Made by a program: the position numbers and the translations under genes
Origin: a virus
Taxonomy: Duplodnaviria > Heunggongvirae > Uroviricota > Caudoviricetes
Length of the DNA stretch: 44,752 nucleotides
IMG/VR virus record: IMGVR_UViG_2671180296_000008
Span: 1-44,752 of that record
Reading direction: 5' to 3' (one strand)
Notes under the pieces: generated by a model
What the model was told of the DNA's origin: nothing
What the model saw: the letters and a program-made list of their open reading frames with translations, nothing else
The model's database searches: none
Shown: positions 2,870-27,253 of the stretch, piece after piece
How the letters are laid out: every line of letters begins with the position of its first letter
How positions within the stretch are numbered: the stretch's first letter is position 1

Positions 2870-2944
2870 GTCCTCTTAGTTAAATGGATATAACGAGCCC
2901 CTCCTAAGGGCTAATTGCAGGTTCGATTCCTGCAGGGGACACCA
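2870..2944 (+). tRNA. argW: tRNA-Arg (anticodon CCU)
   Basis: GTCCTCTTAGTTAAATGGATATAACGAGCCCCTCCTAAGGGCTAATTGCAGGTTCGATTCCTGCAGGGGACACCA; anticodon loop CTCCTAA; T-arm GGTTCGATTCC. Confidence 0.9.
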
Positions 2945-23521: not shown

Positions 23522-24007
23522 TTATTTCAGTTCGTTACCAGGCATTTCTTTTAGCTCTTTCAAATGACAACGATTGAGACTAAACCACTCCCCGTGCGAC
23601 CTATAGTTGTAATATTTTTGGTGCAATTTGGTTTCAAGCTCTCTATCGGCCGGAATCTTTGCAATTAGATTTAGCTTCCCACCACTCATGCGAGATATCT
23701 CTGAAATCCGTTTATTAACTCTGCGACTAAACCCTATTTTTGTTAGCCCACTATCTTCAGCATGCAGAACGTACACATATGATTTTTGCGAAGCACTGGG
23801 TGCGACTTTGTTGTAATTAATCATGTCAAACATGAAGCCTTGCTTTAGCAAAGTTTCAAAAAAGATAGAATTAACACACCCATTCCTTCTCAGCTCTGCA
23901 CTTAGCTTGTCAATTTCCTCTATGATGTCGCCAGACCCCTTTCCACTTATAAGAAAATCTTGGTACATGCGACCAATTCTTGAGGTAATTTCAACAAAGT
24001 TATTCAT
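23522..24007 (-). CDS. T5orf172/GIY-YIG-like domain protein (moron; candidate nuclease)
   Basis: C-terminal SYVYVLHAEDSGLTKIGFSRRVNKRISEI...HGEWFSL fits the T5orf172 (GIY-YIG-like) pattern by recollection; AT-rich; unrecognised N-terminal ~75 aa. Confidence 0.55.
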   Translation of the reverse strand: MNNFVEITSRIGRMYQDFLISGKGSGDIIEEIDKLSAELRRNGCVNSIFFETLLKQGFMFDMINYNKVAPSASQKSYVYVLHAEDSGLTKIGFSRRVNKRISEISRMSGGKLNLIAKIPADRELETKLHQKYYNYRSHGEWFSLNRCHLKELKEMPGNELK

Positions 24008-24351: not shown

Positions 24352-24789
24352 TCATCGAAGGCATTGCGTCATGATGTACTCCTGCAGGTAGTTAACCTGC
24401 GCGGTTATCCTGTCGATTCCGCTTCGGAGACGGTAATAATTGAGTTCAGCATCTGCTGTAAGTCTTGGGCTTTCTCCATCGCCCATGCTGCTGGCTCCGG
24501 TCGTTGACTTTGCACAGGTGGCGGCGACTTGCAGCCGCTTACGCCCAGCAGAAACATCATCACGGAGACTTTCGATAGTCGCGTTAGCATCAGCAAGCTC
24601 CTTTGTGTATCTGGCGTCGAGTTCTGCTACATCACGTTGACGCTTCTGCATGTCAGCGATTGTGGATGTGGCCTTATCGCGCTGCTCTTTGTAGGCGATT
24701 GCGTTATCACGGTAATGATTAACAGCCCATGACAGGCAGACGATGATACAGATAACCAGAGCAGAGATAATCGCGGTTACTCTGCTCAT
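24352..24789 (-). CDS. Rz: Spanin inner-membrane subunit Rz (lambda-type)
   Basis: [31 protein letters not shown]... matches lambda Rz by recollection. Confidence 0.85.
24405..24596 (-). CDS. Rz1: Spanin outer-membrane lipoprotein Rz1, embedded in Rz in another frame
   Basis: Embedded ORF with LLGVSGC lipobox and Pro-rich segment; start uncertain. Confidence 0.7.
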
Positions 24790-25262
24790 ACCTCAATCTC
24801 TCTGACCGCTCCGCCAGCTTCTTTGAATTTTGCAATCAGGCTGTCAGCCTTATGCTCGAACTGACCATAACCAGCGCCCGGCAGTGAAGCCCAGATATTG
24901 CTGCAACGGTCGATAGCCTGACGGATATCACCGCGGTCAATCATCGGCAAAGCGCCACGCTCCTTAATCTGCTGCAATGCCACAGCGTCCTGGCTTTTGG
25001 GAGAGAAGTCTTTCAGGCCAAGCTGCTTACGGTAGGCATCCCACCAACGGGAAAGAAGCTGGTAACGTCCGGCGGCTGTTGATTTGAGTTTTGGGTTTAG
25101 CGTGACAAGTTTGCGAGGGTGATCGGAGTAATCAGTGAATAGTTCTCCCCCTACAATGACGTCATAACCATGATTTCTGGTTTTCTGACGTCCGTTATCA
25201 GTTCCCTCTGACCATGCCAGCATATCGAGGAACGCCTTACGTTGATTATTGATTTCCACCAT
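24786..25262 (-). CDS. R: Endolysin R (lambda-type lytic transglycosylase)
   Basis: [39 protein letters not shown]... matches lambda R by recollection. Confidence 0.9.
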
Positions 25263-25569
25263 CTTCTACTCCGGCTTTTTTAGCAGCGAAGCGTTTGATA
25301 AGCGAACCAATCGAGTCAGTACCGATGTAGCCGATAAACACGCTCGTGATATAAGCGAGATTGCTACTTAGTCCGGCGAAGTCGAGAAGGTCACGAATGA
25401 ACCAGGCGATAATGGCGCACATCGTTGCGTCGATTACTGTTTTTGTAAACGCACCGCCATTATACCTGCCGCGAAGGTACGCCATTGCAAACGCAAGGAT
25501 TGCCCCGATGCCTTGTTCCTTTGCCGCGAGAATGGCGGCTAACAGGTCATGTTTTTCTGGCATCTTCAT
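25246..25569 (-). CDS. S: Holin S (lambda-type, dual start)
   Basis: [39 protein letters not shown]... matches lambda S107/S105 by recollection. Confidence 0.9.
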
Positions 25570-26031
25570 GTCTTACCCCCAATAAGGGGATTTGCTCTAT
25601 TTAATTAGGAATAAGGTCGATTACTGATAGAACAAATCCAGGCTACTGTGTTTAGTAATCAGATTTGTTCGTGACCGATATGCACGGGCAAAACGGCAGG
25701 AGGTTGTTAGCGCAACCTCATGCCACCCGCTTTCACGAAGGTCATGCGTAGAAGGCCGCAGCATAACTATCACTGATGAGTTCAGGATAGCCAGTGGCTA
25801 CGGCTCAGTTTGGGTTGTGCTGTTGCTGGGCGGCGATGACGCCTGTACGCATTTGGTGATCCGGTTCTGCTTCCGGTATTCGCTTAATTCAGCACAACGG
25901 AAAGAGCACTGTATGTTGCCGGGCCAGATGTCGGCTGCACAGGGAGTCATTGCCGACCCACGCCCTAAACACGCTCGTAAATGCGCTTAGGGTTGTCTCC
26001 CCTGGTATCCAGTTATTCCCCGGCTGGGGAT

Positions 26032-26085
26032 ACTCCGCGCGACGCTAATGCGTTTCGTCCCTCATGGACTCGTCAGGCGCGCAAT
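26032..26085 (-). ncRNA. Hammerhead ribozyme motif, type-I topology (stems II and III closed, stem I open)
   Basis: Minus-strand RNA UUGCGCGC-CUGACGA-GUCC(AUGAG)GGAC-GAAA-CGC(AUUA)GCG-UC|GCGCGGAGU; all conserved core positions present; predicted cleavage after GUC between plus coordinates 26041 and 26040. Confidence 0.6.
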
Positions 26086-26354
26086 GCTCTTACCTGTTGT
26101 GTGCCCATTATTAATCACACCGGGCCAGTGCGCCGAATTTGTTTACAAGGAGTCGGAAGACCTTGCTGACTTACAGGCTATTACGCCGCCATCAGAACAA
26201 CATCATCGTTTGCATTTATCTTTGTGGTCAGTTTCTAAAAAACCGCAAAGTCGCCAACTCTGACGAAAACTATCGTTGTGCTGCCACAACGATAAGAGCA
26301 CTCGGTGCATTTAAGCCAAGCCCCATAAGGGAGAATGCTCTTACCTGTTACACA

Positions 26355-26418
26355 GATATAAAAAATCCCGAAACCGTTATGCAGGCTCTAACTATTACCT
26401 GCGAACTGTTTCGGGATT
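26355..26418 (-). terminator. tR'-like terminator of the short 6S leader transcript
   Basis: AAUCCCGAAAC ... GGUUUCGGGAUUUUUUAU hairpin plus U-run, positioned as in lambda downstream of pR'. Confidence 0.55.
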
Positions 26419-26629: not shown

Positions 26630-27253
26630 CTAACGTGTGACCGCGTTCAAAATGTTGTCTGCGATTGACTCTTCCTTGTGGCATTGCACCACCAGAGCGT
26701 CATACAGCGGCTTAACAGTGCGTGACCAGGTGGGTTGGGTAAGATTTGGGATTAGCATCGTCACAGCGCGATATGCGGCGCTTGCTGGCATCCTTGAATA
26801 GCCGACACCTTTGCATCTTCCGCACTCTTTCTCAACAACTCTCCCCCACTGCTCTGTTTTGGCTATATCAACCGCACGGCCTGTACCGTGGCAATCTCTG
26901 CATCTTGCGCCCGGCGTCGCGGCACTACGGCAATAATCCGCATAAGCGAATGTTGCGAGCACTTGCAGTACCTTTGCCTTAGTATTTCCTTCGAGCTTTG
27001 CCACACCACGGTATTTCCCCGATACCTTGTGTGCAAATTGCATCAGATAGTTGATAGCCTTTTGTTTGTCGTTCTGGCTGAGTTCGTGCTTACCGCAGAA
27101 TGCAGCCATACCGAATCCGGCTTGTGATTGCGCCATCCCCATAGCAGCCATCACATCAGTACCGGAAAGAGAGTCAGAAGCCGTGGCCCGTGGTGAGTCG
27201 CTCATCATCGGGCTTTTTGGCGAATGAAATTTAGCTACGCTTTCGAGTCTCAT
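26630..27253 (-). CDS. Q: Late antiterminator Q (lambda-type)
   Basis: [52 protein letters not shown]... matches lambda Q by recollection. Confidence 0.9.

Follow-up and report, generated by a model that had tools for sequence, protein, structure and literature searches.

A hammerhead motif at the 5' end of a conserved RNA module in a lambda-type late leader

The late leader and its hammerhead motif

The DNA examined here, called the window, is the 44,752-nucleotide (nt) stretch comprising positions 1 to 44,752 of the IMG/VR virus record IMGVR_UViG_2671180296_000008, assigned to the Caudoviricetes. Our subject is a hammerhead ribozyme motif at 26035..26081 and the conserved RNA domain that follows it. 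Coordinates are those of the window, and the features described are on its minus strand unless stated otherwise. The window holds a lambda-like prophage, and the motif lies in its lambda-type late leader. Upstream is a Q-like open reading frame (ORF) at 26630..27253, and downstream are the S, R, and Rz genes (25569..24352), all taken from the ORF list; holin S, the first late gene downstream, occupies 25246..25569 according to the ORF list and the lambda annotation. When the window was aligned with lambda (NC_001416), the two were ~99% identical over the end of Q, pR', the 6S region, and tR'. We take the tR' terminator to lie at 26353..26385; its position, like that of pR', is presumed from lambda coordinates. 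The hammerhead is ~270 nt downstream of tR', within the Q-dependent late leader between tR' and S, and 471 nt separate the predicted cut from the start codon of S, downstream at 25569. An initial annotation of the window, made from the sequence alone, had given the same location and put the motif about 460 nt before S.

The ~99% identity with lambda resumes at 25911 and continues to S. Between the two matching regions, pairwise alignment shows a 38-nt hairpin loop in lambda, enclosed by ACAACAGGTAAGAGCATT and CAGTGCTCTTTCCGTTGTG, and a replacement segment of 422 nt in the window (26333..25912). Lambda has, as the initial annotation stated, homologous flanks without this segment. The segment contains an extra hairpin copy, an element resembling transfer-messenger RNA (tmRNA), and the hammerhead module. 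The hairpin that flanks the module was located by the alignment with lambda, its 5' strand, ACAACAGGUAAGAGCAUU, at 26083..26100 and its 3' strand, CAGUGCUCUUUCCGUUGUG, at 25893..25911. The 5' strand is common to lambda and many other phages, and the stem covaries by eye in one homologous locus, L027, where GAGCAC/GUGCUC is replaced by GAGAAUA/UAUUCUC.

From 26084 to 26033 the minus strand reads UUGCGCGC CUGACGA GUCC-AUGAG-GGAC GAA A-CGC-AUUA-GCG-U C GCGCGGAG, and the cut would precede GCGCGG. Stem I (26081-26077 with 26040-26036) has 5 base pairs (bp), followed by a G-G mismatch. The core positions C3 to A9, CUGACGA, are at 26076-26070 and lead into stem II (26069-26066 with 26060-26057), which has 4 bp, is closed by G10.1-C11.1, and carries the loop AUGAG. 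G12, A13, and A14 (GAA) follow at 26056-26054, and then comes stem III (26053-26050 with 26045-26042), which has 4 bp if its closing pair, A15.1-U16.1, is counted, and the loop AUUA. C17 is at 26041. Every invariant core position is present: C3 U4 G5 A6 (N7) G8 A9, G12 A13 A14, and an H17 that is not G. Both ends exit via stem I, and stems II and III are loop-closed hairpins, which is the type I topology. From the hammerhead consensus, self-cleavage is predicted between 26041 and 26040, 3' of C17 and 5' of G1.1. The initial annotation had described this core, these three stems, with stem I given as at least 5 bp, and this cut; the sequence is as described, the cut is where the consensus places it, and the homologues discussed below have an invariant core and compensatory changes in all three stems.

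A descriptor of the motif found a single match in the whole window, both strands being scanned, and none in 1,000 dinucleotide-preserving shuffles (0/1000), even when every stem was allowed to be as short as 3 bp. Because the motif occurs once in the window and never in the shuffles, a chance look-alike is excluded. The minimum-free-energy structure of the 52-nt segment, computed with ViennaRNA, is the hammerhead three-way junction; the same fold persists in a 216-nt context, in which the stem of the flanking hairpin also closes. The initial annotation had proposed a check against Rfam. In E-value mode RF00163 (Hammerhead_1) did match, with 24.7 bits (E = 8e-4 over 401 nt and 2.5e-3 over 1.2 kb), but this is below the family's gathering score of 34. 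The loss of score falls in the sequence of stem I and in the loop lengths, and the core aligns perfectly. The homologues scored 23 to 32 bits against HH_1, HH_3, or HH9. Judged by its core, helices, and topology, the motif is a genuine hammerhead, with self-cleavage predicted.

A ~170-nt module and its related copies

The initial annotation saw the hammerhead but did not recognize it as the 5' part of a larger mobile unit, a module of ~170 nt. In the window the module occupies 26081..25912, of which the hammerhead is the first ~47 nt; the rest belongs to a structured domain of 129 nt (25912..26040) that begins with the 3' strand of stem I. Besides the copy in the window, 34 related ones were recovered. 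Their sources are lambdoid prophages, Pectobacterium phages and one T7-like phage, phage contigs rich in tRNA genes, and a genome of Bordetella. A BLAST query consisting of the hammerhead and the following ~150 nt found the segment in 15 of 5426 complete Escherichia coli genomes and in 4 of 50,697 phage records. One copy, with 95% identity, lies between the capsid and tail-tube genes of the T7-like Enterobacter phage SDFMU_EhYP. Three Pectobacterium/Dickeya phages match with 79% identity over exactly 26081..25914, and a tRNA-Met begins within 5 nt. Pattern scans gave 17 IMG/VR loci, 13 metagenome loci, and 1 Bordetella trematum contig, and a second, re-spaced pattern returned the same 17 loci from the viral contigs. 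The metagenome pattern was defined by the sequence of the downstream domain alone, and an intact hammerhead lay immediately upstream in every match. B. trematum was the sole match in the scan of genome contigs (one genome per species), and the host range among reference genomes is therefore narrow.

Many copies are inside phage tRNA arrays, directly abutting the next tRNA, with the domain 0 to 25 nt before the tRNA 5' end. Others follow tR'-like terminators in the Q-to-S leaders of lambdoid prophages that have different Q modules, and in locus L019 the copy is ~25 nt before an ORF. The module is co-oriented with neighboring transcription in all loci checked. It is shared horizontally among phages.

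Alignment A3 contains 21 distinct sequences of the module. CUGA-GA, GAAA, and U16.1 are invariant, and the pairs G10.1-C11.1 and A15.1-U16.1 occur in 21/21 sequences. The residue at N7 can be C, A, or U and that at H17 either C or A, which is exactly the freedom that the hammerhead consensus permits; the triplet at the cleavage site is GUC or GUA. The sequence of loop II varies, with AUGAG, ACACG, UGAAAU, AAAAA, and others among the homologues.

We wrote by eye a structure of eight helices, consisting of stems I to III and five helices in the domain, Pa to Pe, of which Pb and Pc are pseudoknots. Pa pairs 26033-28 with 26010-05. Pb joins the Pa loop to the 3' tail (26024-19 with 25923-18), and Pc joins a junction to the Pe loop (26002-25997 with 25946-41). 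Pd pairs 25992-83 with 25972-63, and Pe pairs 25957-52 with 25935-30. Standard pairs fill 97.2% of the alignment cells of this structure. Double-sided changes occurred in 25 of its 48 pairs versus 2 to 6 in controls whose partners were slid by 1 to 3 columns, and none of 500 shuffles reached the observed covariation values. Within the hammerhead, such changes affect two pairs of stem I, three of stem II, and one of stem III: GCGCG/CGCGC in stem I becomes CACGA/UCGUG in L026; GUCC/GGAC in stem II becomes GUUC/GAAC, GUCUU/AAGAC, or GGCU/AGCC; and CGC/GCG in stem III becomes UAC/GUG or CAC/GUG. In the 129-nt domain 19 of 34 pairs have double-sided changes, and ~99% of the cells are paired. The domain also has stretches that are unpaired yet invariant, namely GAAUAACU, GCGUGG, GCAAyGA, and UGCAGC.

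A covariance model, R1, was built from eight divergent homologues; the window and all lambdoid copies were excluded. R1 matched the window over its full length at 25912..26085, with 190.5 bits (E = 3.7e-60). Of 43 other loci, 33 gave a single full-length copy and one gave a truncated relic, and R1 had no match in lambda or in loci with the tmRNA-like element alone. In all 33 full-length copies and in the window, the domain follows an intact hammerhead, and the two were never found apart. Since R1 finds full-length joint copies, hammerhead and domain form one unit of ~170 nt. Rfam searches at E ≤ 10, covering this region of the window and six homologous loci, gave no family other than hammerheads for the 129-nt domain. 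Compared by eye, the topology of the domain does not fit that of a hepatitis delta virus (HDV)-like, twister, pistol, hatchet, or glmS ribozyme; nor, again by eye, does it fit a T-loop or a sarcin-ricin loop. Its fusion to a hammerhead, together with its covariation and double pseudoknot, defines a candidate new class of structured RNA.

Two of the loci have further features. In E. coli 2017.17.01CC (L044, 1090-2010) the module is in a noncoding region of ~990 nt between divergent genes of a different prophage, with portal and terminase genes in the neighborhood. A promoter-like sequence of the TTGACA type precedes this module, and stem I of its hammerhead is interrupted by an A-C mismatch at position 2.2-1.2. 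The metagenome contig L029, which carries a tRNA-Ser as well as the hammerhead module, has at 608-701 a small RNA resembling RprA (63.9 bits versus an Rfam gathering score of 70), by which a phage might mimic a regulatory RNA of its host.

The tmRNA-like element and other features of the window

Upstream of the hammerhead, on the same transcript, is the tmRNA-like element (26254..26101), recognized from sub-threshold tmRNA models, blastn, and conservation of its tag. It resembles the central part of tmRNA. A tag-like frame at 26213..26181 reads GCA AAC GAU GAU GUU GUU CUG AUG GCG GCG UAA, that is, ANDDVVLMAA and a stop; AUAAAU precedes it, and pseudoknots resembling PK2 and PK3 come after it. 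The sub-threshold matches are to several tmRNA models, including tmRNA_permuted and beta_tmRNA, and cover the tag ORF and pseudoknot parts alone. With blastn, matches to the element were found in 758 of 50,697 phage records, where it is almost never annotated. These records include Jersey-like and other siphoviruses, N4-like phages, Ackermannviridae, and Felix O1-like phages. The element frequently sits in tRNA arrays, and a promoter-like sequence precedes it in several instances. The tag peptides are conserved with synonymous changes (ANEEMYLAVA, ANDNTFLAVA, ANDNVFLAVA, and ANDAQFLAVA).

The element does not have what would make it a tmRNA proper, a tRNA-like domain (acceptor stem with G3-U70, T-arm, and CCA) joined to the tag region. 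Neither the window nor the related phage loci run through ARAGORN yielded a tmRNA call, the 5' strand of an acceptor was not found before GAUAGUUUUCG, and no attached tRNA-like domain was evident. The sequence may represent a split or otherwise unconventional phage tmRNA. Candidate tRNA-like pieces are present near the element in three loci, none of them called by ARAGORN. In AYO145A (L040), 883-957 reads CGGGGCG...GCGGGUUCGAGUCCUGC-CGCCUCG-ACCA, with a G3-U70 pair, ~110 nt downstream of the element. Erwinia phage Pistou (L042) has an RNA of ~170 nt at 454-621, from GGGUGAU to GGUUCGAAUCCUUAAUCACUCGCCA, just upstream of the element. SP058 (L043) has a T-arm, UUAGGUUCAACUCCUAA, at ~640-665, 21 nt upstream of the element. 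The 129-nt domain was considered as the tRNA-like half of the adjacent tmRNA-like RNA and rejected, as it lacks an acceptor stem, a T-arm, and CCA.

The module of the window fills the variable loop of the hairpin with which the tmRNA-like element ends. A second, upstream copy of the flanking hairpin is at 26349..26285 and reads AACAGGUAAGAGCAUU [CUCCCUUAUGGGGCUUGGCUUAAAUGCACCG] AGUGCUCUUAUCGUUGUG; its loop is of the type found in Klebsiella phage MK54. The presence of this second copy points to recombination between copies of the flanking hairpin as the source of the 422-nt insertion. Lambda's own late-leader hairpin (L037, ~1000-1075) is equivalent to 26100-26083 plus 25911-25893 of the window. 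With its 38-nt loop, GAGTCGATAATCGTGAAGAGTCGGCGAGCCTGGTTAGC, it matches the terminal hairpin of the tmRNA-like RNA in the virulent phage C1, and AAGCGAAUACCGGAAGCAGAACCGGAUCACCA, which follows downstream in lambda, is similar to the 3' region of the IME11 tmRNA-like RNA. From these resemblances, the tR'-S region of lambda may be a relic of a phage array of noncoding RNA and tRNA.

Elsewhere in the window, a tRNA-Arg (CCU) at 2870..2944 on the plus strand is the sole tRNA called by ARAGORN; it may mark the prophage attachment site. Just downstream of Rz is an ORF of 161 amino acids (23522..24007) with a C-terminal half, YVYVLH...GLTKIGFS...GEWF, that looks like a candidate GIY-YIG or T5orf172-type domain.

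Proposed function and comparison with known systems

We propose, with a probability of about 0.75, that an evolutionarily maintained hammerhead fronts the ~170-nt module, would cleave itself, and would set a structured 5' end on the downstream RNA. The module would be transcribed from pR' after Q-mediated read-through of tR', and the hammerhead would fold cotranscriptionally on the nascent transcript and cut between C26041 and G26040. The cut would separate the lysis and morphogenesis message from an upstream leader of ~510 nt, which includes the tmRNA-like element and would be left with a 2',3'-cyclic phosphate at its 3' end. The late RNA would then begin with a 5'-OH G followed by the compact pseudoknotted domain. 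Because a type I core stays on the upstream fragment, the cut would serve the downstream RNA by defining its 5' end; in this topology the downstream fragment keeps only the six-nt stem I strand. For the same reason we rejected trimming of the 3' end of an upstream tRNA, as theta ribozymes do, since the ~47-nt ribozyme would stay on the upstream fragment. More generally, the module would be a self-contained device that gives a defined, structured 5' end to a tRNA precursor, a structural-gene mRNA, or the S-R-Rz late mRNA. The downstream RNA would be insulated from the upstream leader and probably stabilized. In E. coli, 5'-OH ends are poor activators of 5'-end-dependent cleavage by RNase E, and a 2',3'-cyclic phosphate makes an end resistant to polyadenylation-assisted 3' decay; because of these end properties, both cleavage fragments could be stabilized. 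The setting of ends fits every context seen, whether tRNA precursor, structural-gene mRNA, or lambdoid late mRNA.

Several observations weigh against this proposal. At the Rfam gathering threshold, a search of the whole window did not report the hammerhead, and the tRNA was the sole match. Stem I is just 5 bp in the window, and neither a conserved loop-loop tertiary contact between the stem I and stem II elements nor a conserved partner complementary to the variable loop II was identified in the 21-sequence alignment; for these two reasons, activity at physiological Mg2+ is not assured. The adjoining 129-nt domain could supply the contact. The copies in L007, L044, and L013 have stem mismatches, and activity need not extend to all copies. 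The family has little depth, with most copies >90% identical and much of the covariation coming from ~8 divergent lineages; the covariation is nonetheless real, because the slid controls keep the relatedness. Finally, RNase P excises the downstream tRNA in the arrays anyway, and protection of the downstream RNA is therefore not the whole story. The strongly conserved unpaired nucleotides of the 129-nt domain likewise suggest a specific partner or activity beyond the setting of ends and stabilization.

These nucleotides bear on two related ideas. That the ~170-nt unit represents a class of phage noncoding RNA not described before, matured by its ribozyme, in which the domain has a specific role and is not a processing scar, we hold as a tentative view at less than even odds; such a role would be, for example, that of a decoy or inhibitor of a host RNA-targeting defense or RNase, or of a ligand-responsive controller of the hammerhead. 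The hammerhead might, in a narrower version, free the double-pseudoknot RNA to act in trans as a decoy, sponge, or inhibitor of a host factor or defense, the 3' end being formed by RNase P on the next tRNA or by processing in the flanking hairpin. The invariant unpaired stretches and two covarying pseudoknots are as expected for a specific fold or partner, and in tRNA arrays the domain, 0 to 25 nt before the tRNA, is placed like one more gene. T7-like phages would transcribe their late genes with their own RNA polymerase, and the occurrence of the module in unrelated phage types, the T7-like one included, makes a polymerase-dependent function unlikely; the same occurrence led us to reject an antitermination RNA directed at the polymerase, like put. 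However, no 3'-end-forming signal follows the domain in the lambdoid, T7-like, and L019 contexts, where it would stay on the mRNA unless a host RNase cuts, and we identified no partner, target complementarity, or co-occurring protein. We consider such a released RNA unlikely.

We find it improbable that the module is a selfish or neutral mobile noncoding cassette whose ribozyme activity is irrelevant to the window prophage, a passenger spread by recombination between shared flanks, either the ACAACAGGTAAGAGCA...CAGTGCTCTT hairpin or tRNA arrays. The sharp boundaries of the ~170-nt unit in many unrelated contexts, the loop swap within identical hairpin flanks that separates the window from lambda, the rarity of the segment (15/5426 E. 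coli genomes and 4/50,697 phage records), and the degenerate copies in L013, L044, and L007 are all consistent with a passenger; but the invariant core and the compensatory changes in all eight helices, from Bordetella to Pectobacterium, indicate purifying selection on the RNA, and a passenger would not explain co-orientation with transcription at every locus checked. The chances are slimmer still that the 129-nt domain is a ligand-sensing aptamer controlling cleavage, making the module a natural allosteric hammerhead. Its placement would suit that role, as it starts with the stem I 3' strand GCGCGG, has Pa one nt after stem I, and is never apart from the hammerhead, and it has riboswitch-like complexity and conserved junction nucleotides. 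Known aptamer families, however, do not match the domain, the class of the downstream gene is inconsistent and offers no hint of a ligand, and no alternative pairing that competes with stem I was found. As for a chance look-alike or a piece of protein-coding sequence, the silence of Rfam at its gathering threshold and two plus-strand ORFs that overlap the site (25981..26169 and 26048..26263, of 62 and 71 amino acids) could be cited, but no shuffle of 1,000 contained such a motif, the variation is of the RNA type, with compensatory pairs and with indels confined to loops, and some copies are between tRNA genes, where an ORF is impossible. Covariation, shuffles, and the R1 survey refute this reading, and we give it a negligible probability.

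The hammerhead class itself is known, and what is newly described here is the obligatory fusion of a hammerhead to a new structured domain. No description of this hammerhead or module was found in the literature searched, and full-text searches with sequence strings returned only unrelated primers. The insulator RiboJ, attributed to Lou and colleagues in 2012, is reportedly a synthetic device for 5' untranslated regions in which an engineered hammerhead is followed by a 23-nt hairpin. As the module would, RiboJ is said to remove a variable leader and leave a 5'-OH and a stable structure before the expressed RNA. Unlike the RiboJ hairpin, the domain of the module is natural, 129 nt long, pseudoknotted, and conserved in sequence, which points to a module that does more than insulate passively. 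R2 retrotransposons, which are protein-coding and transposing, have an HDV-like ribozyme at the 5' end. The parallel is an inserted element that is cotranscribed with host RNA and whose ribozyme frees its own 5' end, as would be the case for the module; the module differs from R2 in that it is noncoding, has no associated reverse transcriptase, and would leave its hammerhead on the upstream fragment.

Perreault et al. 2011 (PMC3088659) described hammerheads in bacteria, many within prophages and some flanking genes, and proposed, without establishing a function, that they process long phage transcripts. The window hammerhead is like those of RF00163 (clan CL00010) and of PMC3088659 in its identical core, three stems, open stem I, and location in a polycistronic phage or prophage transcript. 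It is unlike those of PMC3088659 in being single and not one of a gene-flanking pair, and unlike the type I hammerheads of RF00163 in its score below gathering and in a stem I 3' strand that runs directly into a conserved, double-pseudoknot domain of 129 nt that always accompanies it. The text and supplements of PMC3088659 do not mention enterobacterial or lambdoid hammerheads. Prophage hammerheads have been reported since 2011, and the window offers a tractable case, with a canonical core in a lambda-type late leader and, in lambda, a natural isogenic control that has the same flanks without the module.

By analogy, the nearest functional counterpart of the module is the theta ribozymes (Kienbeck et al. 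2024, PMC10879173), HDV-like ribozymes adjacent to phage tRNAs that cut at their own 5' end, so that the tRNA upstream is trimmed at its 3' end; that paper does not mention hammerheads. Both are small self-cleaving types among phage tRNA genes that are thought to take over the processing of RNA ends. Unlike theta ribozymes, the window hammerhead belongs to another ribozyme class, and its core would stay upstream and set the 5' end of a downstream domain that is not a tRNA. The recurrence of the module beside phage tRNAs ties hammerheads, alongside the HDV-like theta ribozymes, to phage RNA maturation.

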